Source: Candidatus Heimdallarchaeum aukensis
GTDB taxonomy: Archaea; Asgardarchaeota; Heimdallarchaeia; Heimdallarchaeales; Heimdallarchaeaceae
Assembly: GCA_021513695.1 (NCBI GenBank)
Contig: CP084166.1
Span: 288,001 to 352,000, forward strand
DNA length: 64,000 nt
Direction of reading: 5' to 3'
In this document: piece after piece, positions 7,460 through 25,232 of the stretch
How the letters are laid out: every line of letters begins with the position of its first letter
Position numbering within the stretch: position 1 is the first letter of the stretch
Notes under the pieces: model-generated
Seen by the model: only the letters and a program-made list of their open reading frames with translations
Database searches by the model: none
Told to the model about the DNA's origin: nothing
Translations under genes and position numbers: made by a program

Positions 7460-7669
7460 ATGCTTATTCTTATTAAAAAGTTTTAGTTTTAGATTAAAAA
7501 AATCATGCATTATTATCATACTTTTTATTAAAAGACTGTTTATTCTAACGATATAACAACCAATATTATCAAGTTGAAGATACCATAAATAAACTAAATT
7601 AAGTTAAAAACCGTCTGTTATGATTTTTTTTACTTTCCAAGCATTAATTTTTTATTGAAATATTTTGTT

Positions 7670-9481: not shown

Positions 9482-9564
9482 TAAATTGATTTAATAAATG
9501 ATATAAAAAGTAGAGAAAAATCGTTAATTAACTTTATAATATCAAAAATTTCTAAGTAATTAGA

Positions 9565-10536
9565 ATGACTAAATCGACTGTAACAAAGAATGGAAACAAA
9601 GATTCAAAGATATTACCAATTACATTAAAGCTATCTGTTATAAGTTTTAATCGTGTTTCTATCCCATCTCATTTAAGCTTCATTGAAACTGGTGATACAA
9701 TAATAGGAACTATTGAACATGAACTATTGCCAAGTCCTCAATATTTAAACAAGCAATTAAGTTCTAATCGAACTATAACTTTAGGTTTCTTAAAAAAACA
9801 ATTTCCTGGAAAAAAGCTACCTGAAAATATAACTATAACTATTAGAGAAGTGATAAAAAAGAAAGAATCTTTGCCCACAGTAAATGTTTTTGGGTATATA
9901 AGAAATCAAGACAAACTAATTTATTTTGATAAGTCTGAATTTTCTTCCTCTTCTCTAAAAAAATTAAAAGATAAAGCGAAGAATAGTGTTGAAATATTAT
10001 ATACAAAAAAAGATAATATGCCGTTTACTATTCTTCAAGGAGATTATTTTAAGGATTTAGATCTTTGGGTAGTTCCTATTATTTTCTATCTTCAAGGAGA
10101 TTTTGGTTTAGTTCCATCTTGCCTGTTACTGCTTTTTGATAAAGTAAACTTTACTAAATTTTCATCAATACAAGATAAGGCTAATCTTTTGATAGAGCGA
10201 TATGTTACTTGGTTAAGTTTTGAAGAAGATTTGAATGAAGAAACAATCAAACTCTTTGCTTTACAGCTGACTCATATAATAGAAACTAATACTTTACCAG
10301 CTTTCTATGGATTACAAGAAATACTAACAATGGAAGATGAACTTAAAAAAAGAATATTGATTATCTGCATTAAAAACAGGAAAAAAAATGGAATTACTTT
10401 AGAAGAGTTATTTGAACATTTAGAAAGTTACAGTGAAGAAGTAGTTAAAAACAAAGTTGAACAATTAGAAAAAGAGAATCTTCTTTTATTATTGGACAAA
10501 AAAACTGAATCATATGATATTTCTTGGTTGTTGTAG
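9565..10536 (+). CDS. Hypothetical protein, 323 aa. Its C-terminus looks like a winged helix (ITLEELFEHLESYSEEVVKNKVEQLEKENLLLL). It is divergent from xpd.
   Basis: Long ORF at a coding-like position 83 nt from the divergent xpd start. I recognise no known motif. Confidence 0.45.
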   Translation: MTKSTVTKNGNKDSKILPITLKLSVISFNRVSIPSHLSFIETGDTIIGTIEHELLPSPQYLNKQLSSNRTITLGFLKKQFPGKKLPENITITIREVIKKKESLPTVNVFGYIRNQDKLIYFDKSEFSSSSLKKLKDKAKNSVEILYTKKDNMPFTILQGDYFKDLDLWVVPIIFYLQGDFGLVPSCLLLLFDKVNFTKFSSIQDKANLLIERYVTWLSFEEDLNEETIKLFALQLTHIIETNTLPAFYGLQEILTMEDELKKRILIICIKNRKKNGITLEELFEHLESYSEEVVKNKVEQLEKENLLLLLDKKTESYDISWLL

Positions 10537-10569
10537 TTAAGGCAATTTGAACTTTAATGAACTCTTTTT

Positions 10570-12093: not shown

Positions 12094-12156
12094 GTTCTCT
12101 TTTTTTTCTTTTTTATTGATTTACAATATACTTTGGAAAAAATAAGAAAAAGGTTA

Positions 12157-13587
12157 TTACAAATTTGTTGCTTTCTTCTGATAAAGAAAATCACTCAAGA
12201 ACCCTTCATGTGGTGCTGCTAAGTCCATCAAGAAAGAACTTTCATTTACAAAAACTTTATGTATTGATGGTTCACGTAGATACTCTCTTGCCTTTTCTTT
12301 CTTATCTGTTATTACGCTTAAAGCAAGAGTATTTTGTACTAACTCATGAGGTAAATACTCGTTAACTCTTGTTATTGTACCAAATGGAAATGGATACTCA
12401 TCTGTCCTCATTTTATGGTCCTCTTTTAGTTCTAGCAATATAGGAAGTAGATAACCAAATTCTCCGTTAAGATAGAGAAAATCATCATATCCTCTATATT
12501 CAGATGTTAGATCTTTTGTATTTTTCATTCGTTGTCTGATATAACTAGCCAAATTTTTTGCTCCTTCTTTCGTCATTGCAGGGAGTTGGGCTTCTTCTTC
12601 AAGAGGATGATAAGGTTCAATCTTTGCTAGTTTTTTAGCAAGCTTATGCTTAAATTCATCATATCCTTCATCTGAATTATATACTATGCTTGATGCATTA
12701 ATGCATCCTCTTCCTCCATCATAAATTATACTTCTATAAGCTATATCAAGAGCTTGACGCATTCTGTATGTACTCATCTTTTCAGCGTCTATTAATATTT
12801 TAGATCTACCAGGTCCATAAGTTTTGATTTGATTATTTTTTCCATACATCTGAATTGTCCAATCTGAACCAAATACTATCCCTAAATCGCTCTTTGTTAT
12901 TAAAGTATCTACTTCTGCATGTGTTGTTACAAAGTGGAAAAGAGCTTCTGAAGGTATTCCTGCTTCCCATAGTGCCTTGCATATTCTATAACTAGTAAAA
13001 GGTTCACTGCTTGAAGAGCGTATTATTGCTGGAATTTTGAATAATGGGATTAAAGCTCCAAATAAAGCTACTGCTGGATGATTCCCTGGAAGAGCTACTC
13101 CAACGTTTTTTCCTTTAGGACTAAAACCAAACTTTGTTGTCCCTCTTACCCCTACTAGCTTATCATATATTTCTATTTCACTTGTAGGACTGTTAGCTAT
13201 TAGAAAACGTTCTAACTGTTCTTTCTTGAAAAAAGCAGGTATCATTTCTACAGCATTTCTTACTACAGAAATTGGCATTCCAGTAGATAAAGTTATCAGT
13301 TTAATCCAATTATTGAGAGTAGTGCTTTGTCCTCCTATCTCCATTTCTTTAGAAAAAATCTTTCCTGCTTCAACATAGATATCAATAAGATCATCTATTG
13401 GGATTTTTGATAGTTTTCGGAAACCAATCCCTCTATTTATTGGAATAGCCATTTGTATATGTAATTCTGGGGAAAAGCTTATGTTAGTAAGAAATCTTCC
13501 GTTTATTGCTTTTAATGGTACCTTTGTTGAACTTAAATATTCTGTACCATTTCTTAATGTTGGTAAATCACTTAGTAAAGAACTCAT
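12157..13587 (-). CDS. Aldehyde-dehydrogenase-superfamily protein, LuxC-like acyl-CoA reductase family.
   Basis: The ALDH-like motif GPGRSKILIDAE resembles ELGGKSPxIVxxDAD. The catalytic-Cys region GGRGCINASSIVY resembles GQRCxA. The 476 aa length is typical of LuxC. Confidence 0.5.
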   Translation of the reverse strand: MSSLLSDLPTLRNGTEYLSSTKVPLKAINGRFLTNISFSPELHIQMAIPINRGIGFRKLSKIPIDDLIDIYVEAGKIFSKEMEIGGQSTTLNNWIKLITLSTGMPISVVRNAVEMIPAFFKKEQLERFLIANSPTSEIEIYDKLVGVRGTTKFGFSPKGKNVGVALPGNHPAVALFGALIPLFKIPAIIRSSSSEPFTSYRICKALWEAGIPSEALFHFVTTHAEVDTLITKSDLGIVFGSDWTIQMYGKNNQIKTYGPGRSKILIDAEKMSTYRMRQALDIAYRSIIYDGGRGCINASSIVYNSDEGYDEFKHKLAKKLAKIEPYHPLEEEAQLPAMTKEGAKNLASYIRQRMKNTKDLTSEYRGYDDFLYLNGEFGYLLPILLELKEDHKMRTDEYPFPFGTITRVNEYLPHELVQNTLALSVITDKKEKAREYLREPSIHKVFVNESSFLMDLAAPHEGFLSDFLYQKKATNL

Positions 13588-13614
13588 TTTATTTTCAATA
13601 ATTTATCACAAAAA

Positions 13615-13639
13615 TCATTTATAAAGAAGGAAATTTTTT
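13615..13639 (-). promoter_or_regulatory. Promoter element containing a TATA box (TTTATAAA) about 30 nt upstream of the LuxC-like gene start. This 25-nt sequence is identical to the one at 25019..25043.
   Basis: On the + strand it reads 'tcatttataaagaaggaaatttttt'. On the coding (-) strand it reads 'aaaaaatttccttctTTATAAATGA', placing the TATA centre about 34 nt upstream of the ATG. Confidence 0.5.
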
Positions 13640-13832
13640 TGTCTACTTTTTTCTTTTAGACTTTTAAGACAGGTAGTCATAAAATTAATACACACATTTT
13701 AGCACGAGAAATCTCTTGCTCCCATATCTGCAGGAGAAGAATTTTCTTCTCCTATATTATATACAGATTAATCTCTTACTACACTAAGACTAACAAAGAT
13801 TTTTTAAATGTTCAAAAAAAGCAAAAGTTGAT

Positions 13833-15860
13833 TTGCAAATAGGAGAATTATTTAGATTTAACTATTATTTTGAAAATGATGCTGAAAATAAATTCTTTAA
13901 TAACATTTCTCCTAATATTTTAGAATTTGCAAATTTTATAGCAGAGAATTGGTCCGAAATAATAGAATCAAAACTTTCTCCTATCCATCAGAGTAGAATA
14001 GCATATGTTTTAAAAATATACAACTTCAAGGAAGAATTAGAACAATTATATTCTAAATACAAGAATCTATGGGTTGGGACTTATTATCTATGTTTTCTTA
14101 ACAAAGAAATGCGTTTGAAAGATGCACAAGAATTAATTTATTTTTTAGAATCGACTGTAAGTAATTTAGAGTTTTCTCCTTTTCTTTATTTCGATTATAC
14201 TATTGAAAAGATACAATTATACCTTAATAGCAATGAAATTGCGCTGATTAATTCACTAATACAAGAAGCAGAAACTATAATCAATAATGTAAAAGAGAAA
14301 TATCCTGAAAGGGTTATCGTTTATTATACTTCAATTCTAAACTATATTAAAGGAAAAGTTAACAATAAAGTAGGTAAGATTGTTAAAGCAAAAGATTTTT
14401 TTTCTCAAGCAATTAGTATTTTAGAAGATAAAGGTTTAGAAGATCAGTATTTATTAGGTTGTATTTTTTCAGATTTAGCATCAATTTTGTTTTATTTCGA
14501 TTTAGATGAAGCTGAAATTCTTTATAGAAAAAGTTTCAATATTTTTGAATTATTGGGAATAGAAAAAAACCAAAATATTGAGAGAGCAAATTTAGCTTAT
14601 TTGAGGTTTCATAAAGGATATGTAGATGAAAGTCTGGATATCTTGATTGAATCAATGTATTACTTTGAAAAAAAGTTTGATGCTCAAAATCTATTTAAAA
14701 TATATTTATTCCTTAGTGAGGATTTCTTAATATTGAAACATTATGAGAATTCAAAATCATATTTGATGAAATCTTTACAACTAATGGAACAATTAAATTT
14801 TGAAGAAAGTCAACTTTATATCACTGCTCTAGATTATTATTTAGCAACTAACAATGAAAGAGAAGCTGAGATATACCTTAATTTATTCAAAAATTTTATA
14901 GAAAGAGTTCAAGATTCTGAAGAAGATTCAAAATATGTTTTTGAATACTGTTTAAGAATGGCTCAATTTGAATTATTAAAAGAGAATATTTGGAATGCTG
15001 AACAACTACTAATAACAAAATTTGTTTGTGATACGAACATAAAGAGCAACTATTTTCTTCTTAAAAGAAATTCTATTTTAATTGAAGTATATCTTCTAAA
15101 ATTCAGGATTTCTGATGAAAAAAATACAATTATTAATAACATTGTCCATCTCTTTAAGGATAGTCATAATGTTTTAAAGAGATATTTTAGTCTCTTTCAG
15201 TGGATTTATTATACTACACAAGTTTCTCAATTTTTCATAATTATAGACTTTGAGGAGAAAGCAGATACTTTTTTCTACAAAATCAAGGAATCATTAGCTA
15301 AATTTAATATCTCTGACTCAATTTTACTTCAAATTATTAATAATATTGAAGTTGAACTCTTTACAAAATATGACAAGAAAAGCAATCAAGTTATAAAATT
15401 AGTGAATAGTTATCCTTATGAAGTAGAACATTTAGAACTCACAGAAATTGACTTTTTTGAGATGATACAAACTTTTACTCCTTTAAGAGAAAATTTGCTA
15501 ATTTTACAAATTATCGATTTAACTAAAGAAAAAGTACTTTTTTCTTATAATTTTATTGAAGAAAATGGTTTCCTTTCAAACGAGTTATTAGGAGGAATGG
15601 TTTCTCTAATCCTTAAAATATCAAGAGAGATTCCAATAGAAAAAACTAATACCAATTATAATAACTGCCGATTTGTTTCTAATTCTGGATTCTTTGCTAC
15701 AATTTTTCCAATGGAGAATTATTCTTTTTCTTTAATATCTAATTTTTATACACACGATGGTAAATCACGATTGATAAATTATGCAATGGATGTTCATCCT
15801 ATACTTAAAAAAGAAGGATCAAATGAAACTATTTTTAAGAAGATTCAAGAACATTTTTAA
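13833..15860 (+). CDS. Hypothetical helical-repeat (TPR-like) protein, 675 aa.
   Basis: Long ORF whose amphipathic helical repeats are rich in Y/L/E/K, consistent with a TPR-like alpha-solenoid. No catalytic motif is present. Confidence 0.45.
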   Translation: MQIGELFRFNYYFENDAENKFFNNISPNILEFANFIAENWSEIIESKLSPIHQSRIAYVLKIYNFKEELEQLYSKYKNLWVGTYYLCFLNKEMRLKDAQELIYFLESTVSNLEFSPFLYFDYTIEKIQLYLNSNEIALINSLIQEAETIINNVKEKYPERVIVYYTSILNYIKGKVNNKVGKIVKAKDFFSQAISILEDKGLEDQYLLGCIFSDLASILFYFDLDEAEILYRKSFNIFELLGIEKNQNIERANLAYLRFHKGYVDESLDILIESMYYFEKKFDAQNLFKIYLFLSEDFLILKHYENSKSYLMKSLQLMEQLNFEESQLYITALDYYLATNNEREAEIYLNLFKNFIERVQDSEEDSKYVFEYCLRMAQFELLKENIWNAEQLLITKFVCDTNIKSNYFLLKRNSILIEVYLLKFRISDEKNTIINNIVHLFKDSHNVLKRYFSLFQWIYYTTQVSQFFIIIDFEEKADTFFYKIKESLAKFNISDSILLQIINNIEVELFTKYDKKSNQVIKLVNSYPYEVEHLELTEIDFFEMIQTFTPLRENLLILQIIDLTKEKVLFSYNFIEENGFLSNELLGGMVSLILKISREIPIEKTNTNYNNCRFVSNSGFFATIFPMENYSFSLISNFYTHDGKSRLINYAMDVHPILKKEGSNETIFKKIQEHF

Positions 15861-15882
15861 TTTAAATCGTTTTTTAAAGGAT

Positions 15883-17574
15883 ATGAGTTTAGCAATTGAC
15901 ATTTTGTTAATATTACTACCATTTCTAATAGCTTCTATCTTGCTTGTGAAATTTAAGTGGAAGGCAGACACTACAGGAACACTGATATTTGTATTATTTT
16001 TGGTTCTCTCTATTTTTTACTTTAAAACAAATTGGAAAATAGCCTTTCTTACTTCTATTGCTGGATTAGCAAAGAGTTTTCCCATTAGTTTGATGGTTTT
16101 AACGAGCATCTTGATGATGACCTATATGGAAAAAACAGGAGCTCTTGCAAAAGTAGTTGTTTCATTCAAAAAAATAGGTGGAGGAAATAAAGCTTTTCAG
16201 ATTATGATAATTAATCTCTCATTCGGTACATTTCTTGTTTCAATTGGAGCAACACCAGTAACTATGCTTCCTCCAGTTTTAGCAGCAATGGGTTATAGCG
16301 CCTTTGCAGCTGTAGCTCTACCTTCTATAGGTTATGATCCTCTGTGTACATACGCTTTGCTTGCTGTTCCTGCTGTATTCTTTGCTGAATTTATGAATAT
16401 CCCCTTGACAGAATCTGGATTAGCTTTTAGTTATTATATGCCCTTGGTTTCTTTAGGAATAGCTTTAGGTATGCTTTATCTCGCAGGAGGAAAAGACTTA
16501 CTTTTTAGTAAGGATGGGTTCATTTTTGGGATTGTAGGAGGGTTAACTACTGGTGGTTCAGCCATTCTATCGAATTATTTTGGAATTGTTAAACTTACAG
16601 GAGTCGTTTCAGGTTTAATTACTGCAGTAGTTTTAGTAATTTTAGCTTTAATTAAAAAAGTAAAAATAATTGATAATAGCATAATTACAGAAGAAGAAAA
16701 GAAGATAGATCAATCAATGTCTTTAGTAAAAGCGATGTTTCCATGGATTTTACTAATTCTTTTCGTAGCACTTGTCAACTTTATACCTTTTCTTGCAGAC
16801 TTGTTTCATAACCAATTGCCTTTTACATTTAGAATAGGCGAAATTGTTATTTCAACAAGATTTCTTGAGCAAGCTTACTTTTGGGTACTTGTTGCTACAA
16901 TTTTGTCTATACCTATTTTAGGATGGAAAAAAGAACAACTTCTTCAAACTACCAAGAAATGGATAAAAAGAAGTTATCGTCCTGTTTATGCTGCAGCTAT
17001 TTATTTTTCAGTTGCTTTTCTAATGATTTATTCTGGTTATATCTTTCAAAATAATTCTTGGTACAAAATTGCTGAAAATAACATCATATATATCTTAGCA
17101 ACTACATCTGCAAAAGCTTTTGGAAAATTCTATCCATTAATTGTTCCTTTTATAGGCCTGTTAGGTGGCTTTGTAAGTGGATCTGAAACTTCATCAATAG
17201 CTATGTTCACACTCTTACACAAAACAGCCTCAGAGCAAATTGGATTAATTGCAATTGCTGTAGGAACTGCTAATGGTGTAGGAGGAGGGTTAGCTTCTGT
17301 TCTATCTCCTGCAAAAATACAAAATGCTGCAGCTGTAATAGATGAAGTAGGAATTGAAGGAGAAGTGATTAAAAAAAGTGCACCAATTGCGCTCTTAATG
17401 ACTCTTTCTGTAGCGACTTTAAGCTTATGCTGGGCTAACAGTTATATCTGGTGGAAATGGATAATTGCGTTCAGTATCTATTCTTTAATCATAGTATTTT
17501 CATTCTTACTTATTTTTTATAAAGAAAGGTTAAAATCGCTTCTTTTTACTAAAAAAAATCGTCAAAGAAAATAA
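15883..17574 (+). CDS. L-lactate/glycolate permease (LctP family) membrane transporter. I have trimmed the start from the track's 15781 to the ATG at 15883, which removes an 80-nt overlap with the upstream gene.
   Basis: QIMIINLSFGTFLVSIGATPVTMLPPVLAAMGYSAFAAVALPSIGYDPLCTYALLAVPAVFFAEF aligns with E. coli LldP ([59 protein letters not shown]). The protein is polytopic over its whole length. Confidence 0.6.
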   Translation: MSLAIDILLILLPFLIASILLVKFKWKADTTGTLIFVLFLVLSIFYFKTNWKIAFLTSIAGLAKSFPISLMVLTSILMMTYMEKTGALAKVVVSFKKIGGGNKAFQIMIINLSFGTFLVSIGATPVTMLPPVLAAMGYSAFAAVALPSIGYDPLCTYALLAVPAVFFAEFMNIPLTESGLAFSYYMPLVSLGIALGMLYLAGGKDLLFSKDGFIFGIVGGLTTGGSAILSNYFGIVKLTGVVSGLITAVVLVILALIKKVKIIDNSIITEEEKKIDQSMSLVKAMFPWILLILFVALVNFIPFLADLFHNQLPFTFRIGEIVISTRFLEQAYFWVLVATILSIPILGWKKEQLLQTTKKWIKRSYRPVYAAAIYFSVAFLMIYSGYIFQNNSWYKIAENNIIYILATTSAKAFGKFYPLIVPFIGLLGGFVSGSETSSIAMFTLLHKTASEQIGLIAIAVGTANGVGGGLASVLSPAKIQNAAAVIDEVGIEGEVIKKSAPIALLMTLSVATLSLCWANSYIWWKWIIAFSIYSLIIVFSFLLIFYKERLKSLLFTKKNRQRK

Positions 17575-17580
17575 TTTTAC

Positions 17581-17605
17581 TTTTCTTTTTTCTTTTTTTT
17601 TTCCT
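17581..17605 (+). terminator. T-rich tract (ttttcttttttctttttttttt) just after the permease stop, candidate terminator.
   Basis: Direct reading of the oligo-T run. Confidence 0.35.
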
Positions 17606-17680
17606 TATTTTAATTATTGTGGATATCTAAAAATATATATAAATAAGTAAAAATTTCTAATTATAAAGCGATTTTACTTC

Positions 17681-18283
17681 GTGAATATTATGACCTTAGA
17701 ACAATGCAATGTCGGCGATGTGATAAACTACTTACTTCAACAGCAATTATTTAAAGAACCTTTTTACCTAATTGATAGAACTTCAAAGAAGCAAATGAAA
17801 ATAACTTGTAGTTCAAAAATAATTGAGAAAATGTATGAAAAGATTTTTTCTATTTCAAAGTTGTGGGAAGAAAGAGGAGAAATTGATTTTATTGAATCGC
17901 TAACCAATATTTTAGGAATTGAGTTTGAAGAAGTTTATTCGATTTATAAAATTAAGTCAGAAGCTTTAGACGATCGCGAAGAAGCAGAATGCTTGAGATT
18001 TATGTTTGCATTATCTGAGTCTATACATCTCTTTCAAAAGAAAGCGATTGAAGAAGCTCATTTTCAAATATTAAAAAAATTTGATTTTGATAAAGAAGTT
18101 TTAAATCAAGTTTTGGGGATACTAAGTCAAAATGCAGATCAAGACCTATCAATTTATCAAAATTTCTATATTCTAAAGAAGTATTCAGACATCGTAAACA
18201 TCAAATTGGAACAAGTTATTATTTCGAAGGTTTTTAATAAAATTGTAAAAAAAGTGGAAAAATCTTATAAAAAGATGGAGTGA
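17681..18283 (+). CDS. Hypothetical alpha-helical protein, 200 aa.
   Basis: The ORF sits in a clean intergenic slot. No recognisable motif. Confidence 0.4.
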   Translation: MNIMTLEQCNVGDVINYLLQQQLFKEPFYLIDRTSKKQMKITCSSKIIEKMYEKIFSISKLWEERGEIDFIESLTNILGIEFEEVYSIYKIKSEALDDREEAECLRFMFALSESIHLFQKKAIEEAHFQILKKFDFDKEVLNQVLGILSQNADQDLSIYQNFYILKKYSDIVNIKLEQVIISKVFNKIVKKVEKSYKKME

Positions 18284-18446
18284 AAGTAAAAAATTCTTTT
18301 TTTATTATCTCGTTGTTAGTACAAGATTAAAATACTAAGATAATGTTAAGAGAAGAAAAACAAGGAAATTGTATCAAATAAAAGCTACATTACAATGAAT
18401 TTTGGAAAAACTTTTTTAACATGCAAACTATTGAAAAGCGATAGAT

Positions 18447-19790
18447 TTGAACTCATCATTTGATGTTATTATTATTGGAGCTGGTCCTGCAGGATTGATT
18501 CTTGCTTACTCTTTAGGTAAAAATAGATTAAAAGCTCTACTTATAGAACAAAAACCAATGGAATTAATCGGAGAAAAAACATGTGGAGACGCTCTTGGCT
18601 TTGACAGAACAGAGGAACTTAAAGATCTTATTCAAATAGAAGAACCAAACCCAGAAGTTATTTGTGCGATACTTGAAACAGCTCATCTTTCTTCTGAAAA
18701 TAAGTTTGAGATAAGTATACCTTTTCAATGTAGAACAATTAACAGATTAAAGTATGGTCAACAATTGTTAAAAAATATACAACAATTTTCAACTGTTTCT
18801 ATATTGACAGAAACAAAGGTTGTTGAGCCAATTATTACAAATGATAAACTAGAAGGAGTAGTCATCAGAAATAAAGAAGGAAAGAAAAGCAAGTTTTATG
18901 CTAAAATAATAGTAGATTGTTCTGGATATACTGCAATAATAAGAAAACAGCTTCCTAGTAATTTATTTCCTAAAATAAATCAAGTAGGTAGAGAAGAAAC
19001 TATTGTTTCATGTCGAGAAATTATTCAAACAAAAGAAGAACATTCTTTTCAAAAGCAAATGAGAATAGAGTTACATCCTGAGCTTCCTCCTCCTGGTTAT
19101 TTCTGGATTTTTTCAAAAGGTAAAAAGAAGTTGAACATAGGGGTAGGTTGGTTAATTAATGAACAAAATAAGAAAATTAAACCCAGTGTCATACTTGAAA
19201 AAATAAGGAAAAAGATTTTCCCAGAATGTACAGTTATTAAACATGATACTGATTTACTCCCAGGACGGTTACCTCTGTATTCGATGGTTGGAGACAATTT
19301 TATTGTTTGTGGAGATGCAGCTGCTCTAGCTAACCCTATTAACGGAGAAGGACATGGGCCAGCTTTAATATCTGGATATTATGCTGCCAGTACAATTATT
19401 TCAGCATTAGAAAGAGAAGATTTTTCAGAAAGATCTTTATGGAAATATAATGTTGAGATTTGGAAGAAATTTGGTTATTTAGGTAGTATGGGAATAGCTA
19501 TTCATAAATTTTTAAAGAAATACCCAATATCAGATTTTGAATACTTATTTACTAATGGTATCATAACTCAAGAAGATGTTAATAATATTCTTTACGATCT
19601 TGGTTATAAGCCTTCTATTTTTAATAAATTCATAAAAGCAATGAAGAGACCTAAACTTATGCTTAGGTTAGTAAGAATGATTTTAATTGCAAGAAAAATA
19701 GAAAAATTATGCCTTTCTTATCCAACAGAAGAAAAAGATTTCAATAAATGGAAAAGAAAAATGGTTAAACTAGAATTAAGAGAGTTGTAG
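18447..19790 (+). CDS. FAD-dependent oxidoreductase of the geranylgeranyl reductase family (archaeal digeranylgeranylglycerophospholipid-reductase-like).
   Basis: N-terminal Rossmann fold FDVIIIGAGPAGLILAYSL is followed by ...IEQKP...GEKTCGDALG, matching the GGR PxxxxGDKPCGD signature. The first codon is TTG. Confidence 0.65.
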   Translation: MNSSFDVIIIGAGPAGLILAYSLGKNRLKALLIEQKPMELIGEKTCGDALGFDRTEELKDLIQIEEPNPEVICAILETAHLSSENKFEISIPFQCRTINRLKYGQQLLKNIQQFSTVSILTETKVVEPIITNDKLEGVVIRNKEGKKSKFYAKIIVDCSGYTAIIRKQLPSNLFPKINQVGREETIVSCREIIQTKEEHSFQKQMRIELHPELPPPGYFWIFSKGKKKLNIGVGWLINEQNKKIKPSVILEKIRKKIFPECTVIKHDTDLLPGRLPLYSMVGDNFIVCGDAAALANPINGEGHGPALISGYYAASTIISALEREDFSERSLWKYNVEIWKKFGYLGSMGIAIHKFLKKYPISDFEYLFTNGIITQEDVNNILYDLGYKPSIFNKFIKAMKRPKLMLRLVRMILIARKIEKLCLSYPTEEKDFNKWKRKMVKLELREL

Positions 19791-19808
19791 TTCAGCTGTT
19801 CTTGAGTT

Positions 19809-20678
19809 TTATTTATTTCTCTCTACTATTTTTTTTTCTAATATATCAGCGATTTGTTGAATCGATAAGTGAAGTTCGGAACCTTCAGGAGCAAAATAAT
19901 TACCATTTATAGTTCGATTGTTGATTTCGTCAGAATATCGAATTTCCTTTAGAAATTCTATTTTTTTAGGTTTATACACTTCAATTATTTCCTTTTTCCA
20001 TTTTTCTAATATCTTCTCAACCTCTGGTTCTTTATCAAAAGGAGTTTGATTATAAATGAAATAAGTAGAAGGTTTTTTTGTTTTTGCAGATGATAAAACA
20101 TCAATTTCTCTATACATTTTTTTTAACATATATTTTGCCCCTTTAAAGCTAAAAGTACTTGGTCTGAGAATAAATAAATTAATATCACTAACACATAATG
20201 CGTAAAGACTTTCTATTTTCCACCCTGGTGTACAATCAAAAACTATACAATCATAACCATTCTTTTTTACAGTATTAACAAATTCTATTAATCTAAAAAA
20301 AGCATTGTCTTGAATCTCTTTCATCAAATTTAGGAGACCTGAACCGAATTCAACTTCTTCTTTGGAAACAATTACATCTAAGTTTTCTATATTAGTATAA
20401 CTAACATTATTTTTATTAAAATTCTTGTTCCCAAGCAATATATCATTAATAGTTAATTTAATTTCTTCTTTTGAGATATTAAATACATGTTGAGCAGTTC
20501 CTCCTCCTATGTCTAAATCCACAAAAAGAGTTTTTTTGTTTCTTTTTGCAAATTCTAAAGCTAAGTTAACTGAAATAGTTGTTTTTCCGGGGCCACCCTT
20601 TTGACTATGAACAGCAATAACGCTAATACGTGATCTAGGTTGATTTTCAACATCCCACTTGAATTCGCTAAGTTCCAT
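19809..20678 (-). CDS. ParA/MinD-family P-loop ATPase with a deviant Walker A motif.
   Basis: Walker A: IAVHSQKGGPGKTTISVNLA. Walker A': VDLDIGGG. Walker B: CIVFDCTPG. Confidence 0.7.
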   Translation of the reverse strand: MELSEFKWDVENQPRSRISVIAVHSQKGGPGKTTISVNLALEFAKRNKKTLFVDLDIGGGTAQHVFNISKEEIKLTINDILLGNKNFNKNNVSYTNIENLDVIVSKEEVEFGSGLLNLMKEIQDNAFFRLIEFVNTVKKNGYDCIVFDCTPGWKIESLYALCVSDINLFILRPSTFSFKGAKYMLKKMYREIDVLSSAKTKKPSTYFIYNQTPFDKEPEVEKILEKWKKEIIEVYKPKKIEFLKEIRYSDEINNRTINGNYFAPEGSELHLSIQQIADILEKKIVERNK

Positions 20679-20956
20679 CGTCGCTCAATAAAATATATAG
20701 AATTGACTTTTTAAAGTTATTTAGACATTTTTTGCTTTTTATAACTTGCTTATTATAAAAAAATAAACAATTTTTATAACCAAAATTTCAAAAATTGTGA
20801 AATTATAACAGTAATATTTATCTGTTGAAAAAACTTATTTCATTTAGATGTTTGACCCCTCTAAAGTTGAAAAGATGAAAAAAAAAATTAAGTAATATTA
20901 ACTTTTCTTCGCTTCAAGACCTTAAAAACGAAGAAATCGATGAAATTTATGAAATT

Positions 20957-22552
20957 TTGTTCTTTCTTAACTATAATGAGCGAAGCTCTGAGTTGTTTCA
21001 ATTATACAAAGAATTTCACAAATTTATTAATAATAATAATGTTTACAAAGAGAAGTCTTACATCATAAAGTATTTTCTTCTCTTAAATAACCTATATTCG
21101 CAAGCTATGTTTTTTGATCCTTCTTTACTAAATATCCTGTCAAAAGAAATAGAACAAATATCATCAAAAAGCAAAAATATTCTTGAAATCCAAGCTTTAA
21201 AATGCCGTATTGATGCTGTTGTTCTAAAGATGCAAAAAAAATTAGACCTTTCAGCCGAAAAAATTAAAGAATCATTCCGAATTGCTAAAAAGTTTAAGAA
21301 AAGTAATAGAGATATATTCTATGATATAGCTTTTTCATACCTTTCTTTCTATCCTGAGTTGATACGAAAGAATACAAAAACAGATCACTCATTCTGGAAA
21401 GAAGTTATTAATTATTTTTATAAAACAAATAAGATAAGGTCTTATTTAGTGATCAAATCTTTTTATATTCTATTTTTAATAAGACAAGCTCAAAATGATA
21501 AGGCTAAAAGCCTGATAGAAGAAGTTGAAAGAGAGAATATATTAGAAAAAGTCCATATCGAAATTAGAATAATGATAAGCTTCAGGATTGGTAAAAGTTA
21601 CTATTTATTAAAACAATATTCTCTTGCTGAAAAATACTTTGAACTTTCTTTTAAACTTCAGAAACAATCAAGACTTCTGTTTCATTATTATTTCTTTGCT
21701 CTAGAAAGTTTGAAGTTTCTAGCTCGTTCTGCTGTTTTTAAAGGAAATCTGGAAAAATCTATGAATTATTTGAAAGAATTATATCAAATACTTGCAAAAT
21801 TAAGGGGTAAAATTGAAGAAGAAACGTATGACTATTATTTTTATAAACTCTATTCTACTTTAAGATTTATTTACTATGTTATGGATAAAGACTTTTCAGA
21901 AGAAATATTCCCTAATCTAAAAGAGCAGCTGTCTAAAATAGTTAAAATAGAAGAATTCCTTTTTCTAAAAGACCAGAACTTAATAATCGAGTATTATGCA
22001 GAGAAAAATGATGAGTTGCAAAGTGCATATATTGAATCAGTGGTAGATCTACTTTTTGTTGACGATACCCCTAAAGAAGAAGTTGAAAAAAGATTATTAA
22101 AGCTACACGAAGCACTGAAAAAAAGAACTTTTACTCAAGAATTCTCCATAATAAATAAGCTAGAATCTTGTAAGATCCTTTTATCAAGAGGATTGTTTGA
22201 TTATTTCCATTCTCTGATTGAAGAGCTTGAAAGTGAAATCAAAAATACTGAAGTGATAATTTACAGAATACAATTCAAGATTTATAAACTAATTGACTTA
22301 TATCTGCAAGATAAAGCAAAAAACAAAGAAAGAGCATTACAAGGGTTATCTGAACTTGAAATTGAATGTAAGAAATTAAAGTTTATTAAAATAACTGAAG
22401 AAATAAAGATGTATAAGCTTCTTATTAATTCAGAGTATTTAGCAGAGAAACTTAAAGAAGAATTCATGAAAATTGCCTTACAAGAAGAATATGAAGAGCA
22501 ATCCAAACAATTGATACAAGAGTTCTCAAAAAATAAACAAAAAAAACTTTAG
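20957..22552 (+). CDS. Hypothetical K/E-rich helical-repeat protein, 531 aa.
   Basis: Long ORF with alpha-helical repeat character and no catalytic motifs. It is divergent from the ParA-like gene. Confidence 0.45.
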   Translation: MFFLNYNERSSELFQLYKEFHKFINNNNVYKEKSYIIKYFLLLNNLYSQAMFFDPSLLNILSKEIEQISSKSKNILEIQALKCRIDAVVLKMQKKLDLSAEKIKESFRIAKKFKKSNRDIFYDIAFSYLSFYPELIRKNTKTDHSFWKEVINYFYKTNKIRSYLVIKSFYILFLIRQAQNDKAKSLIEEVERENILEKVHIEIRIMISFRIGKSYYLLKQYSLAEKYFELSFKLQKQSRLLFHYYFFALESLKFLARSAVFKGNLEKSMNYLKELYQILAKLRGKIEEETYDYYFYKLYSTLRFIYYVMDKDFSEEIFPNLKEQLSKIVKIEEFLFLKDQNLIIEYYAEKNDELQSAYIESVVDLLFVDDTPKEEVEKRLLKLHEALKKRTFTQEFSIINKLESCKILLSRGLFDYFHSLIEELESEIKNTEVIIYRIQFKIYKLIDLYLQDKAKNKERALQGLSELEIECKKLKFIKITEEIKMYKLLINSEYLAEKLKEEFMKIALQEEYEEQSKQLIQEFSKNKQKKL

Positions 22553-22690
22553 TCTTTTTTTTACAAAGAAATGAAACTGATGAATTTAAAAAAAAATCTT
22601 TAATTATTTTGTTATAATGGACATAAAAATAAGTCCTAATTTCAATTACAAATTATTTAAGTCTCCAATTTATGCTGATACTATCAAAAA

Positions 22691-22706
22691 ATATATTTAT
22701 TAAAAA
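22691..22706 (+). promoter_or_regulatory. TATA-like element (atatatttattaaaaa) 15 to 30 nt upstream of the pilin-like gene ATG.
   Basis: Direct reading. Weak, because the background is AT-rich. Confidence 0.25.
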
Positions 22707-22720
22707 TAACTAGTTATCTC

Positions 22721-23779
22721 ATGAAACTTAATAAACTAAATAAAAGAGCAGTTTCACCAGTTATTGCAGTTGTTTTATTAATCGCTTTAGTAACTGCAGC
22801 TGTAGCTATAGTATTTTTTGTAGTTTTGCCAATGGTTCAGGGAGATCCTCAACTAGTAGTCTTAAAAATCACTCCAAGTGATACAGATGGAGACAAAAGA
22901 GTTGATACACTGATTATAGATTACCAAAATCTTGGTTCAGGAGAAGCAGTTATTTCAAGTATAATTTTGTACAAGTATAACAATTCAATGGAATGGACAG
23001 TAGATAAAACACTTCCTTATTCTCTAAAATCTAACAAGAAAGACGTAATAACTTTAACTACTTCCGACCCTACCAAACAATTAAAATATCCTGATATCGC
23101 TTATCTTGAAACTACTTACAGCGATGGAATTCTTTTAAGAACAGATATAACAATAGATTCTAGTTTCTCTCCTGTTACTTTAATCTATTCTGAAGACTTC
23201 AACTCATACTCTGACGGATACTCTCCAACTGAATGGACATATTTCCTTGTAGCACAACATAGTCCTACAGGAACACATACTATTAATGATTGGCAAGTAC
23301 AAAGTGGTTCACTCAAAGTAATGGCAAATGATTGTACCTATATTGTTCTTAATTCAAGTACAGGTTATTATTATACTAACGTGAATATGAGCTTTGACCT
23401 TAAAGCAAATGATAACGACGAACTTGGAATCATCTTTAGGTGGCAAATGGACGGAGGAAAAGAAAAATACTACTTAGTAAGCTATACCAGAGATCATGGT
23501 TTATCTGATCACTTTGGAGGAGATAATCCTACAGATGGTTATGTAACTTTATCTTATGTTGAAGACAACACCATTACTGTAATTGATAGTGCTTCATTTA
23601 GCAGAAATGACAACAGTTGGTACAATTATCGATTAGTTACAGATGGTACATCGATAAAGGTATATATCAATGATGTACTCTATATTGACACTACAAGTTC
23701 TCTTTTATCTGGAGGATATATTGGTCTTGTATCAGCTGCAATGAATGGAGCAGAATTTGATAACATTCTTGTCTGGTAA
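22721..23779 (+). CDS. Secreted protein with an archaeal class III (type IV prepilin-like) signal peptide, fused to a DUF1080-type (concanavalin/LamG-like, 3-keto-disaccharide-hydrolase-like) domain.
   Basis: N-terminus: MKLNKLNKRAVSPVIAVVLLIALVTAAVAIVFFVV, matching the KRAVSPVIA prepilin-peptidase motif plus hydrophobic helix of TIGR02537-like proteins. C-terminus: GYIGLVSAAMNGAEFDNILVW, matching the DUF1080 end motif. Confidence 0.6.
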   Translation: MKLNKLNKRAVSPVIAVVLLIALVTAAVAIVFFVVLPMVQGDPQLVVLKITPSDTDGDKRVDTLIIDYQNLGSGEAVISSIILYKYNNSMEWTVDKTLPYSLKSNKKDVITLTTSDPTKQLKYPDIAYLETTYSDGILLRTDITIDSSFSPVTLIYSEDFNSYSDGYSPTEWTYFLVAQHSPTGTHTINDWQVQSGSLKVMANDCTYIVLNSSTGYYYTNVNMSFDLKANDNDELGIIFRWQMDGGKEKYYLVSYTRDHGLSDHFGGDNPTDGYVTLSYVEDNTITVIDSASFSRNDNSWYNYRLVTDGTSIKVYINDVLYIDTTSSLLSGGYIGLVSAAMNGAEFDNILVW

Positions 23780-23845
23780 ATTTCTTTTTCTATTTTTCTT
23801 TTTTTTATTTTCACACAAAAAATTAAAGAAAAAAAAGATAAATAA

Positions 23846-24991
23846 TTAATATACTCCCAATTGTTCATCTTTTTTTAGTATTCTTCTAGGGTTCCTAATT
23901 CCGTCTCTATTGCTGTAAATACCTTTTCCTTTTATTAATTCTCCATAGTCCCCATATTGAATTAAAGCTGGTATCACACATTCGGGGCTTACTCTTTGGC
24001 TAACTACTGTTCCTTCTTCACCATAGCTCCCTCGTTGACTAATGTCATTTTCATCTTTAGTTATGAACATATTCATTCTTTCCCAAGGATAATAATCTAA
24101 ATCATAATTATCATTGGGTAATTCTGTTTGCATTGTTGGTCCAAAAAGTGATTGTCCGTAGTATCCTGCAAGAGGTAATTGTAATTCTTCTTTAACTAGT
24201 CTATGTGTCTCCTGAGACATTGGAACACCCCCATGAATAATTGCTTTAAGATTTCCTTGCTCTTTCATTTTTTTGATTATAGGATACATTTTTTCAATAA
24301 TTACACCAGTTGTAATAACAATTCCTATGTTACTGAATTCTTGTTCTATCAAATTCTGTACTTGAAAATTCATATTTTCTAGGTATAGCTTCGCTGCATT
24401 TGGATCTTTCATCATTGCGACTTTTATAAATCGAGGATCAAGGTCTATGTGATAAATCATTGATTCCATATCTCTATCCCAGTACTTTATTACCCACTTT
24501 CCAGCCATATGTGGGCCTGTAGGAAGCATTGATAAAACATTCAACCCTCTTGGGATTTTGTGTGCATCAATCATTTGTAAAGCTGCTTGACTAGCAACAG
24601 GAAAAGTAGGTGTTTCAATATCGTATGGGTCTAATTCTCCTGGGAGAAGTGTCATATCTTCTAGAAAGACAGTTTTTTTTGGCTTGCCTGTTGTTCCTCC
24701 AGTTTCAACTAAAGGAGTAGATCTATATCTATTCTTCTTTGCCCACTGAAAAGCCCATTTAGTAGTTGTATGGTAAATAGACTTTCTAAACTCATCAGGG
24801 TTTACATTGCCAAAAAACTCTGCAAGTTCAACCCAGTTTCTAACATCACCTTTTTTTACATTTTTCTCCTTTGCTAGATTAATCATCATAGGAGAGCCAT
24901 ATTGTTCATCAATAGCGATATTTACGCATTCTTCAATAAAATCACTTATTTGATTTTTACTTGCTGTTTTACTTTTGGTCTCTGTAATCAT
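23846..24991 (-). CDS. Adenylate-forming enzyme of the PaaK / coenzyme-F390-synthetase / LuxE (acyl-protein synthetase) superfamily.
   Basis: AMP-binding P-loop VETGGTTGKPKKTV, compare PaaK SSGTTGKPT and LuxE TSSGTNG. The 381 aa length resembles LuxE. Confidence 0.5.
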   Translation of the reverse strand: MITETKSKTASKNQISDFIEECVNIAIDEQYGSPMMINLAKEKNVKKGDVRNWVELAEFFGNVNPDEFRKSIYHTTTKWAFQWAKKNRYRSTPLVETGGTTGKPKKTVFLEDMTLLPGELDPYDIETPTFPVASQAALQMIDAHKIPRGLNVLSMLPTGPHMAGKWVIKYWDRDMESMIYHIDLDPRFIKVAMMKDPNAAKLYLENMNFQVQNLIEQEFSNIGIVITTGVIIEKMYPIIKKMKEQGNLKAIIHGGVPMSQETHRLVKEELQLPLAGYYGQSLFGPTMQTELPNDNYDLDYYPWERMNMFITKDENDISQRGSYGEEGTVVSQRVSPECVIPALIQYGDYGELIKGKGIYSNRDGIRNPRRILKKDEQLGVY

Positions 24992-25018
24992 TTTTTCACC
25001 AATTATTTATACCATATT

Positions 25019-25043
25019 TCATTTATAAAGAAGGAAATTTTTT
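25019..25043 (-). promoter_or_regulatory. Second copy of the 25-nt TATA-containing promoter element, about 30 nt upstream of the adenylate-forming enzyme gene.
   Basis: The 25 nt 'tcatttataaagaaggaaatttttt' are identical to 13615..13639, in the same orientation and at the same spacing relative to a minus-strand ATG. Confidence 0.5.
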
Positions 25044-25232
25044 AGAAATCACTGCAATTTTTCTGCAATTTTTTCCATAATAAATTAATTAAATAAAAGT
25101 AAACAATACTCACGAAAAGGAGAATAAAACTCTCTATTGGGTCAAACATCTTTGAGTTTTATTCTTTTTTCTTTCTTTTCTTATCAAAATATGTATCAAA
25201 CAGACATATATAAACCCAAAGAAAATAAATTA

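Follow-up and report, generated by a model that had tools for sequence, protein, structure and literature searches.

The window analysed here, a stretch of 64,000 nucleotides from Candidatus Heimdallarchaeum aukensis, contains two minus-strand genes, one for a 476-aa protein of the ALDH superfamily and the other for a 381-aa adenylating enzyme (AFE), which are 10 kb apart and share an upstream repeat. The features of the locus are the following.

12157 to 13587, minus strand: EhpG/ThnO-type ALDH-superfamily protein, 476 aa, a presumed NAD(P)H-dependent acyl reductase (Pfam and alignments).
13584 to 13639, minus strand: predicted promoter, short leader and start codon of the reductase gene, a 56-nt unit and the reference copy of repeat family D1.
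13615 to 13639, minus strand: first 25-mer copy (exact match), predicted core promoter of the reductase gene, TATA box at 13618-13625.
13640 to 23845, no strand: separating block of 10.2 kb (ORF list and family assignments).
22679 to 25228, no strand: segment of ~2.6 kb, inverted relative to a relative whose AFE is 94% identical (blastn and gene orders).
23846 to 24991, minus strand: EhpF/ThnN-type adenylating enzyme, 381 aa (alignments, profile search, Foldseek and motifs).
24988 to 25043, minus strand: predicted promoter, short leader and start codon of the adenylating-enzyme gene, 82% identical to 13584-13639 in the same register, repeat family D1.
25019 to 25043, minus strand: second 25-mer copy (exact match), predicted core promoter of the adenylating-enzyme gene, TATA box at 25022-25029.

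The separating block encodes a TPR protein, a lactate-permease family protein, a 200-aa protein, a geranylgeranyl (DGGGP) reductase, a ParA-like ATPase, and proteins of 531 and 352 aa. The inverted segment holds the 352-aa pilin-like gene, the adenylating-enzyme gene and its ~240-nt upstream region.

The 25-mer TCATTTATAAAGAAGGAAATTTTTT occurs on the plus strand in two exact copies in the whole window, in the same orientation to the two minus-strand genes, as the preliminary description had stated. No further copy was found in the window on either strand at up to three mismatches, and 100 dinucleotide-preserving shuffles of the window gave 0 matches. On the gene strand, the first copy reads AAAAAATTTCCTTCTTTATAAATGA. 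Both copies are exactly 27 nt from the ATG (at 13587 and 24991), and therefore the TTTATAAA box lies at -38 to -31 of each start codon, where the TATA box had been placed before. A repeat search shows the 25-mer to be the identical portion of a gapless 56-nt direct repeat that extends from the start codon through the 25-mer and thus exceeds the length first given. The window holds 16 occurrences of TTTATAAA alone against 12.7 expected, which is no enrichment, and it is therefore the flanking sequence that gives the match its significance. Ranked by upstream similarity, the AFE-ALDH pair is first of the 630 gene pairs in the window, with a score of 29 against 20.5 for the runner-up and a median of 6.5.

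The shared element does not appear to be a generic promoter: other genes of the window have A-rich sequence at the BRE position followed by TATATA-like boxes, an arrangement that matches the general description of the archaeal BRE (PMC7289017). The predicted promoter unit of the two genes consists of C/T-rich sequence and TTTATAAATGA. The sequence GGTGA is found 5 nt upstream of the adenylating-enzyme ATG, at -9 to -5. The TATA box is palindromic and the ALDH site has an A-rich stretch on its ATG-proximal side; divergent transcription from this site towards the TPR gene may be possible.

In four other Heimdall genomes, too, both genes are preceded by the cis-element. When all gene pairs were ranked for upstream similarity in five Heimdall genomes, in 4 of which the two genes are dispersed, the AFE-ALDH pair was placed 1/630, 1/496, 1/66, 1/28 and, tied in GCA_054001415, 1/36. 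An alignment of 16 promoters shows a C/T-rich tract and TTTATAAA (CTTATAAA in one), then mostly TGA, and a TATA-to-ATG distance of 30-35 nt in 15 of them. When 240 kb of Heimdall DNA were scanned with a PWM, the sites of the paired genes scored 20.6-29.3 bits and everything else at most 17.8 bits, scores that are circular for the training sites and informative on the absence of other sites. No third gene with the motif was found in these 240 kb. The shared cis-element of the earlier suggestion is real, and the scanned DNA adds no further member of a regulon to the two genes.

Conservation differs between the two copies. A 45-nt block around the first copy (13613-13657) is perfectly conserved in contig L016, which encodes an ALDH protein of 90% identity, and is the second-longest perfect run in an 8.7-kb block around the ALDH promoter that is 82.6% identical overall. 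At the site orthologous to the second copy in contig L012 (AFE protein identity 94%), 20 of the 25 positions match (tttcctcaTTTATAAAtaa), and five differences are what the neutral divergence of this spacer (76%) would give. Only the window genome has two exactly identical copies; a short tract of gene conversion, or retention by chance, may therefore explain the 25/25 match, rather than selection for identity. From this, it could be argued that the pair is real but that the 25-mer is a leftover of promoter duplication, re-homogenised by gene conversion, in front of genes with ordinary constitutive promoters. The C/T-rich part varies among orthologous promoters (CCTTC, CCCTCC, CCACC, CTCGAG), so its exact sequence is not required, the separated reductase gene of contig L004 has a different promoter that lacks the motif, and promoters of weak similarity, pyrimidine-rich with a TATA box, score 15-17 bits at a few other genes. 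However, the pair is the best upstream pair in 5/5 genomes (one tied), including independently rearranged lineages, few stretches of its 8.7-kb block are as well conserved as the ALDH promoter, and lineages with proteins of only ~50% identity retain the TATA-to-ATG distance and the TGA after the TATA box. We consider a mere leftover unlikely, though it deserves some weight.

The 381-aa protein belongs to the ANL superfamily but is atypical in having no C-terminal domain of the usual kind. Its relatives carry the annotation 'hypothetical protein', and many of its bacterial homologues bear the JGI label 'ThnN'. Pfam AMP-binding matches it with an E-value of 0.066 only. The closest match among solved structures is EhpF (366 aa; PDB 3hgu, 3hgv and 3l2k), encoded together with EhpG in the D-alanylgriseoluteic acid (phenazine) cluster of Pantoea agglomerans. 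EhpF aligns end to end with the 381-aa protein (24% identity, E 2e-16), has the same P-loop and, like it, ends in GVY; the Heimdall enzymes differ in an insertion of ~20 residues after the P-loop. ThnN, from the thienamycin cluster of Streptomyces cattleya (pSCAT), aligns over residues 138-344 (29% identity, E 3e-26). When a Heimdall-only profile was compared with PDB sequences, EhpF was the only significant match (6e-21) and nothing else fell below 0.1. Foldseek likewise placed EhpF first (6e-18), using an AlphaFold model of moderate confidence (pLDDT 70.5; TM 0.51-0.57 to EhpF). The next-best structural neighbours were PaaK-type phenylacetate-CoA ligases (1e-10; PDB 2y4n and 2y27) and BT_0428, of the same ANL branch. 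In contrast to the 381-aa protein, PaaK has ~430 aa with a C-terminal domain that makes the CoA thioester, and no PaaK chain appeared at E<=1 in the sequence-profile search of solved structures. The invariant motifs of the adenylating family are ETGGTTGxPK, PTGPH, IDLDPR..K, HGGT, YG and the carboxy-terminal GVY.

The specific relatives of the 476-aa protein are EhpG (23% identity, E 2e-23, residues 73-472) and ThnO (25.5%, E 7e-26, residues 90-473), and a partner protein from Halalkalicoccus aligns over residues 8-470 (26%, E 1e-48). With EhpG it shares the same divergent ALDH type, including the GPGRSK, G-x-x-C and PH(E/D)G motifs. The protein motifs quoted in the preliminary description (GPGRSK, GGRGCINAS and TGGTTGKPK) are all present in the two proteins. 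N169, C295, E397 and H460 are invariant in the reductase family, so that the catalytic Cys and Asn are kept. The position of the ALDH general base Glu268 is occupied by Y257, and none of 18 family members has Glu there; EhpG also lacks Glu268.

The two proteins had first been read as LuxC-like and LuxE/PaaK-type, a possible split fatty-acyl reductase. In a LuxC/LuxE-type system, the fatty acid would be adenylated, passed to a C-terminal Cys of the LuxE-like synthetase and reduced by LuxC to fatty aldehydes or alcohols for lipids. In luminous bacteria, this system also uses two proteins, ATP and NADPH to convert an acid to an aldehyde via an enzyme thioester, and its general scheme, adenylation and then reduction of a thioester, is shared by the present proposal. 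The Heimdall reductase belongs to the same ALDH/LuxC superfamily: it passes the Pfam LuxC gathering cut-off (39.7 against 21 bits), and the solved LuxC 7xc6 is a weak profile match (8.5e-4). Yet its Aldedh score is higher (47.3 bits), it reaches 26 bits on the NCBIfam LuxC equivalog with a cut-off of 750, and it aligns nearly full length with EhpG, the haloarchaeal partner and ThnO. The LuxE assignment of the adenylating enzyme was ruled out: there is no PF04443 match even at E<=10, the family has no conserved Cys that could accept the acyl group (Cys337 is Thr in a ~49%-identity clade), and EhpF is its specific relative. The Heimdall pair has no LuxD either. A geranylgeranyl reductase gene that shares the syntenic block, both in contig L006 and in the window, might hint at lipids, but this linkage is missing in contigs L001, L003, L004, L098 and L099. 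What is known of substrates in this family concerns aromatic or specialised metabolites and not fatty acids, and we saw no sign of fatty-acyl substrates. A LuxC/LuxE-type system is therefore highly improbable here.

That an adenylating enzyme and an ALDH/LuxC-like reductase form a functional pair, as was proposed, is supported by gene order. The genes lie directly next to each other, on one strand, in Heimdall contigs L001 and L002 (26-nt gap) and L005 and L006 (330-nt gap), in L003, a contig of assembly GCA_016840025.1 with relatives that bear the name Hodarchaeota (33-nt gap), and in the haloarchaeon Halalkalicoccus (142 nt). In Pantoea, ehpF and ehpG lie on the same strand with no gap, the annotated genes sharing one base, whereas in S. 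cattleya the adjacent, overlapping genes are in the reverse order, thnO before thnN, and in a context of carbapenem biosynthesis. An EhpG-like gene is found within ~400 nt on the same strand in 47 of the 80 best genome loci. It is absent within 6 kb in about 32 of the 80, so that the adenylating enzyme may also act without an EhpG-like partner. These absences, the dispersal of the genes in several Heimdall genomes and the second-tier structural matches to PaaK-type ligases could be taken to mean two unrelated enzymes, a bona fide ALDH and a PaaK-like aryl-CoA ligase, with a coincidental or historical promoter likeness. We regard this as very unlikely, given the adjacency across Bacteria and Archaea, a reductase without the Glu needed for hydrolytic aldehyde oxidation, and an adenylating enzyme that stops where EhpF stops, before the ANL C-terminal domain for the CoA thioester.

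The adjacency in other archaea, in bacteria and in 47 of the 80 loci identifies the arrangement in the window as a split operon, and the genes are dispersed in at least three further Heimdall lineages as well. Our preferred reading, to which we assign a probability of roughly 0.6, is that the pair is an EhpF/EhpG-type (equivalently ThnN/ThnO-type) two-protein carboxylic-acid reductase encoded by a split operon with paired promoters.

As judged from sequence, the 381-aa enzyme would convert ATP and a carboxylate to an acyl-adenylate, doing so without a C-terminal thioester-forming domain. Its 476-aa partner would take the acyl group onto Cys295, followed by NAD(P)H reduction and release of the aldehyde; because the general-base Glu for hydrolysis is missing, it is proposed to reduce the thioester. 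The EhpF/EhpG chemistry is itself a published proposal and is not known to have been demonstrated biochemically. In that proposal, Bera et al. (2010) reportedly suggested reduction of a carboxylate to an aldehyde via an acyl-adenylate. Identity between the Pantoea and Heimdall proteins is only 23-24%, and phenazine genes are absent near the Heimdall pair, so the substrate probably differs; moreover, the Pantoea genes form an operon, whereas those of the window are dispersed with duplicated promoters. ThnN and ThnO belong to the same two families, and we know of no settled function for them. Single-chain CAR enzymes catalyze the net reaction proposed here, from carboxylate, ATP and NADPH to aldehyde, but combine an adenylation domain, a phosphopantetheinyl carrier domain and an SDR-type reductase domain, whereas the Heimdall pair has no carrier domain and its reductase is an ALDH fold with an active-site Cys.

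Comparison of the loci shows that the ancestral state was a two-gene operon, as in bacteria, the haloarchaeon, some Heimdall contigs and the Hodarchaeota-type contig. The first change in the window's Heimdallarchaeaceae lineage was that the reductase gene acquired its own copy of the upstream promoter, a stage still seen in L006 (AFE protein identity 80%), where the adjacent genes have a 330-nt spacer and two predicted promoters and where part of the separating block (199aa-GGR-ParA-559aa) lies upstream of the pair. One ~11-kb inversion with a breakpoint in the 330-nt spacer would suffice to separate the genes. The adenylating gene was flipped in the window lineage by a second inversion of 2.6 kb; by blastn, L012:2693-5261 aligns with window positions 25228-22679, and the flanks are collinear on both sides.

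In the window, both genes begin 30 nt past an identical unit, AAAAAATTTCCTTC-TTTATAAA-TGA, interpreted as a TATA box after an unusual C/T-rich sequence at the BRE position. From the DNA alone, these units are predicted to act as equivalent promoters, with transcription starting so as to leave leaders of roughly 8-12 nt, and would keep both proteins co-expressed without an operon. The gene pair is a tidy case of a split operon and belongs to a system of a known kind.

Two minus-strand genes of the window, which encode an adenylating enzyme (AFE) and an aldehyde-dehydrogenase-like (ALDH) reductase and lie 10.2 kb apart, carry an identical 25-nt element, TCATTTATAAAGAAGGAAATTTTTT, in their upstream regions. 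The window has a G+C content of about 30%, and close homologues of both proteins are encoded in MAGs named Candidatus Heimdallarchaeaceae (Asgard archaea). The features concerned are listed below.

12157-13587, minus strand: ALDH-like reductase gene, 476 aa
13584-13639: 56-nt direct repeat, copy at the reductase gene
13615-13639: 25-mer, copy upstream of the reductase gene
23846-24991, minus strand: AFE gene, 381 aa
24988-25043: 56-nt direct repeat, copy at the AFE gene
25019-25043: 25-mer, copy upstream of the AFE gene

Both copies of the 25-mer lie exactly 27 nt from the ATG. No third match with three or fewer mismatches occurs on either strand of the window, and none was found in 100 shuffles of it. 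The preliminary description of this DNA had noted the two copies upstream of two minus-strand genes, and they are borne out, although the repeat is slightly larger than was noted: it is a gapless direct repeat of 56 nt, 82% identical, that extends from the start codon to the far end of the 25-mer. Read on the gene strand, the element is AAAAAATTTCCTTC-TTTATAAA-TGA, and the TATA box lies at -38 to -31 from the ATG, as had been described for both genes. When the 70-nt upstream regions of the window are compared in 630 pairs, the AFE-ALDH pair comes first with a score of 29, the next pair reaching 20.5 and the median being 6.5. The second-ranked pair belongs to an MFS transporter gene (28278) and a 495-aa ORF (55884) and has a T-rich stretch in common, which is probably a low-complexity similarity. 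A fragment of a mobile element or repeat family is ruled out as the source of the 25-mer by the presence of only two copies, by their same register to the ATG and by the orthologous positions kept elsewhere.

No Pfam family matches the 381-aa protein at E ≤ 0.001; with the limit relaxed to E ≤ 10, AMP-binding (0.066) and a chance methyltransferase match are all that appear. Among solved structures its sole significant sequence match is EhpF (phmmer E 1.6e-12), which is encoded with EhpG in the phenazine cluster of Pantoea agglomerans. With a profile drawn only from 13 Heimdall sequences, EhpF is found among PDB sequences at 6.3e-21, and the next match is at 0.1. By BLASTP, residues 7-380 align with residues 13-366 of EhpF from the P. 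agglomerans plasmid (24% identity, E 2e-16), and the similarity to ThnN, from the thienamycin cluster of Streptomyces cattleya, is 29% (E 3e-26). An alignment of 25 sequences from Heimdall genomes, Hodarchaeota, bacteria and a haloarchaeon, with EhpF and ThnN included, has as invariant motifs ETGGTTGxPK, PTGPH, IDLDPR..K, HGGT, YG and a C-terminal GVY. The first of these, ETGGTTGKPK in the 381-aa protein, is the P-loop of the ANL superfamily (T/S-G-G-T-T-G-x-P-K), after which the Heimdall proteins have an insertion of about 20 residues. The protein stops, as EhpF does, at the GVY that forms the C-terminus of both, without the ANL C-terminal domain of about 110 aa. The AlphaFold model (pLDDT 70.5) gives the same ranking by Foldseek, with EhpF on top (E 6e-18, TM 0.51-0.57) and PaaK-like ligases second (1e-10); EhpF is covered end to end by the model, while the PaaK targets are about 50 residues longer. 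From its sequence relationships, the 381-aa protein is an EhpF/ThnN-type adenylating enzyme of the ANL superfamily that lacks the C-terminal domain and would adenylate a carboxylate.

Two other assignments were considered for this protein. LuxE, an acyl-protein synthetase, has a conserved acyl-accepting Cys near its C-terminus. The 381-aa protein gives no match to LuxE (PF04443) at E ≤ 10 and none to the NCBIfam LuxE model; its family has no conserved Cys, with no invariant or near-invariant Cys column in alignments A1 or A3, and Cys337 is replaced by Thr in the clade of about 49% identity. LuxE is rejected on these grounds. A PaaK-type phenylacetate-CoA ligase is likewise rejected, as PaaK chains are absent from the PDB profile matches at E ≤ 1, the NCBIfam PaaK models give no match and the C-terminal domain is absent; the sole resemblance to PaaK is the second-tier structural similarity of the model.

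The 476-aa protein matches the Pfam families Aldedh (47.3 bits) and LuxC (PF05893; 39.7 bits over residues 100-331, cut-off 21). The NCBIfam LuxC equivalog (NF052251) scores 26 bits against a cut-off of 750, and no NCBIfam equivalog comes near its cut-off. Residues 73-472 align with EhpG, the product of the aldehyde-dehydrogenase-family gene that abuts ehpF (23% identity, E 2e-23), residues 8-470 with the partner of the EhpF-like gene of Halalkalicoccus jeotgali (26%, E 1e-48) and residues 90-473 with ThnO (25.5%, E 7e-26). The thnO gene was placed by tblastn directly upstream of thnN, which it overlaps; two ORFs downstream of thnN were rejected as ThnO candidates, having no similarity. In an alignment of 18 ALDH-like sequences, N169, C295, E397 and H460 are invariant, and HMMER alignments to the ordinary aldehyde dehydrogenases 8hap and 3ros identify C295 as the catalytic Cys and N169 as the oxyanion Asn. 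The general-base Glu268 (ELGG) of 8hap and 3ros aligns with Y257 (motif TYGPGRSK), and this column holds Y, H or Q, never E, in the 18 sequences. The 476-aa protein is thus, to judge from sequence, an EhpG/ThnO-type ALDH-like protein, and because the thiol is kept and a base for thioester hydrolysis is missing, it fits an acyl-thioester reductase that would work in the aldehyde-forming direction.

Bera et al. reportedly described EhpF in 2010 as lacking the ANL C-terminal domain, and are said to have proposed that with EhpG it turns phenazine-1,6-dicarboxylate into an aldehyde via an adenylate. The observed repeat, family assignments, adjacency elsewhere, rearrangements and recurrent paired promoters are read here, with a probability of roughly 0.6, as the two halves of a split operon that encode a two-protein carboxylate reductase of the EhpF/EhpG type. 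Their co-expression would be kept up by core promoters that are duplicated, near-identical and followed by very short leaders. The AFE would adenylate the carboxylate, the acyl group would pass from the adenylate to Cys295 of the ALDH-like partner, and reduction with NAD(P)H by that partner would release the aldehyde. The duplicated promoters, if active, would allow co-expression of the two genes without an operon. The preliminary description, which took the genes for a possible LuxC/LuxE-like fatty-acyl pair, was right in seeing a functional pair; its type is that of EhpF/EhpG instead, and nothing indicates a fatty-acyl role.

A scan of a genome collection with one genome per species listed 599 candidate stretches, at least 578 of which encode relatives of the AFE, and most of the relatives listed are bacterial (Streptomyces, Acidobacteriota, Verrucomicrobiota, Brocadia and Ktedonobacteria); the window's species and its closest relative considered here, GCA_054387635.1 (AFE protein identity 94%, ALDH 90%), are not among the loci listed. 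Of the best 80 of these at least 578 loci, 47 have an EhpG-like gene on the same strand at a distance of about 400 nt or less. Since the genes are adjacent both there and in Asgard contigs, the coupling of AFE and ALDH is old and crosses domains. The arrangements in individual contigs are given below.

Arrangement of the AFE and ALDH genes, with AFE protein identity to the window where given
L001/L002 (54%): AFE then ALDH, one strand, 26-nt gap, GGAGG before the second ATG
L003 (GCA_016840025.1, Hodarchaeota-type): AFE then ALDH, one strand, 33-nt gap
L005/L006 (80%): AFE then ALDH, one strand, 330-nt gap
L004 (70%): two genes, about 3 kb, between AFE and ALDH

Dispersal is common in Heimdallarchaeia, since a partner within 6 kb of the AFE is absent in all six Heimdall species among the loci listed (48-49% identity), the two genes lie 19 kb apart on the same strand in ERZ4220366 NODE_84, and they are on different contigs in GCA_054001415. 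The toxin-antitoxin modules and other genes that lie between the pair in NODE_84 suggest that it was split there by insertion of mobile material; the gap opens, at 11255-13270 of this contig, with VapBC-like, RHH and PemK-like modules.

The order of neighbouring genes allows the separation to be followed. In the relative of 80% AFE identity, the order is a 199-aa gene, GGR, ParA (minus), a 559-aa gene, AFE, ALDH, a 320-aa gene (minus) and a helicase gene. In the 94% relative, one contig (L012) carries ParA (minus), a 564-aa gene, AFE (plus), a 352-aa gene (minus) and a 550-aa gene (minus), and another (L016) carries a helicase gene, a 323-aa gene, a 491-aa gene, ALDH and a TPR gene, collinear with window 7648-16395. 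From these gene orders, a single inversion would convert the former order into the latter, if it covered the block between the TPR gene and AFE inclusive and broke in the spacer of AFE and ALDH. The window differs from the 94% relative by a further inversion of about 2.6 kb (22679-25228), which flips the 352-aa gene (pilin-N/3-keto-disaccharide-hydrolase-domain), the AFE gene and the whole AFE upstream region; inverted repeats were looked for at its borders, and none was convincing. Related genomes preserve several stages of operon break-up: the tight operon, the pair still adjacent but with its promoter duplicated, and the pair separated by 3, 10 or 19 kb.

Neighbouring genes vary from lineage to lineage and give no common hint of a substrate; those of the bacterial pairs are mixed, and no theme common to them extends to Heimdall. 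In a Bacillota MAG (L024, 3306-12084), the pair lies among Asn-synthase-like, Orn/DAP decarboxylase, ArgJ, B12-binding radical-SAM and KAS III-like genes, a layout that resembles a carbapenem/thienamycin-type cluster. A sodium:solute symporter gene is directly upstream of the pair in Candidatus Pelagisphaera (L062, a Verrucomicrobiota-type MAG) and in Halalkalicoccus (L011), and a glycosyltransferase gene is beside it in L050. Between the two genes of the window, at 15781-17574 and about 2 kb from the reductase gene, lies a gene of the lactate permease family (hydroxy-carboxylate transporter), a linkage not kept in L005/L006. A very long ORF (5-7414, 2469 aa) runs in from the window edge and has internal repeats roughly 360 nt apart; at several offsets (3151-6033), these repeats match the NosD/beta-helix gene of L005.

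The upstream regions of 16 AFE and ALDH genes from nine genomes were aligned on the TATA box. Common to all are a T-run, a C/T-rich tract (CCTTC, CCCTCC, CCCAC, CCACC, CCTCC, CTCGAG or CTTCC) and TTTATAAA, most often followed by TGA, and in 15 of the 16 the TATA box is 30-35 nt away from the ATG. In the tight operons L001 and L003, only the first gene is preceded by the motif. The 80% relative has it before both genes while they are still adjacent, so that promoter duplication preceded gene separation. The likeness between the two upstream regions stands out in each of the five genomes listed below.

Rank of the AFE-ALDH pair among all pairs of upstream regions
Window: 1 of 630
ERZ4220366: 1 of 496
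GCA_054387635: 1 of 66
L005: 1 of 28
GCA_054001415: tied 1 of 36

A position matrix run over 240 kb of Heimdall DNA gives the AFE/ALDH sites 20.6-29.3 bits, values that are circular for the sites that built the matrix, and at most 17.8 bits elsewhere. Of the regulon suggested in the preliminary description, the shared and specific promoter, top-ranked in five genomes with one tie, is supported, and no third gene with the motif is present in the 240 kb. The archaeal BRE is A-rich and lies next to the TATA box, which in turn lies about 25-30 nt upstream of the transcription start (PMC7289017). The AFE and ALDH promoters conserve the TATA box and have a C/T-rich rather than an A-rich BRE position. 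The element is not the generic promoter of this genome, since elsewhere in the window genes are preceded by A-rich sequence and then TATATA-like boxes. An exact scan of metagenome contigs with the 19-mer TTTCCTTCTTTATAAATGA gave 73 matches, in a collection that lacks the window's own AFE promoter, which leaves the scan little power on the regulon question; one match is from Heimdall (L105, the reductase promoter of the close relative) and the other 72 have no similarity to the window. A scan for sigma-70 promoters and terminators, models not applicable to archaea, gave counts at shuffle expectation.

The C/T-rich tract by the TATA box is conserved upstream of both genes across Heimdall lineages and absent from about 230 neighbouring genes. 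It is conceivable, and in our judgement very improbable, that the tract is the site of a dedicated factor governing a small promoter-level regulon that replaced the operon, and that the pair makes a lipid-type or central-metabolite aldehyde and not a secondary metabolite. The factor would then be, for example, a specific regulator or an alternative TFB, and the aldehyde might be used, for example, to make alcohols or ether lipids, the geranylgeranyl reductase gene lying close by.

The two promoters of the window differ in how well they are conserved in the 94% relative. In an 8.7-kb alignment that is 82.6% identical, the two longest stretches of perfect identity both fall at the ALDH gene: one of 45 nt (13613-13657) contains the ALDH promoter, and one of 83 nt (13517-13599) contains the ALDH leader and the first 23 codons. 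Such strong synonymous-site conservation suggests that the 5' end of the reductase mRNA is under constraint. Of the 25 positions of the AFE promoter, 20 match, and the spacer that holds it has an overall identity of 76%; this promoter is less constrained than that of ALDH. The 25/25 identity of the window copies is therefore specific to this genome; its source is either gene conversion from the ALDH copy over a short tract or drift in the 94% relative.

Further elements surround the two promoters. The divergent ALDH-TPR intergenic region contains, at 13713-13753, a perfect palindrome able to form a hairpin, GGAGAAGAA-N4-TTCTTCTCC, and after it a 30-nt block, ATTCTTCTCCTGCAGATATGGGAGCAAGAG, which is perfectly conserved in L016. 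This hairpin and block lie shortly before a TATATTATATA box that is directed towards the TPR gene; they have no Rfam match and may be an operator. About 10 nt upstream of the AFE 25-mer, at about 25051-25071 on the minus strand (AATTGCAGAAAAATTGCAG), stands a tandem TTGCAG-N5-TTGCAG, which is kept in L012, occurs in L176 as TTGCAGTAGAATTGCAG and has no counterpart upstream of the reductase gene; a factor that acts on the AFE gene alone could bind there. The AFE upstream region also has an inverted repeat with a 21-nt loop, AAAGGAGAATAAAACTC ... GAGTTTTATTCTTTTTT, at 25116-25170. L012 conserves this repeat, which in the window has come to lie immediately beyond the stop codon of the gene for the 550-aa membrane protein. 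The sole Rfam match in 12-26 kb, below threshold and due to chance, falls at this inverted repeat (Plastid-psbA-2, E 0.55); the 25-mer and the 56-nt repeats have none.

Beyond the two bacterial antibiotic clusters from which it is known, the EhpF/EhpG (ThnN/ThnO) module occurs widely and reaches Asgard archaea and haloarchaea. What is new here is an archaeal pair of this known kind with an instructive gene-order history. The analysis also proposes a function, as the adenylating half of a carboxylate-to-aldehyde reductase, for a family that has no Pfam match and is called 'hypothetical protein' in Heimdallarchaeaceae records. The biological importance of the pair hinges on its substrate, and the locus offers a clean natural case of how archaea may keep partner genes co-expressed without an operon.
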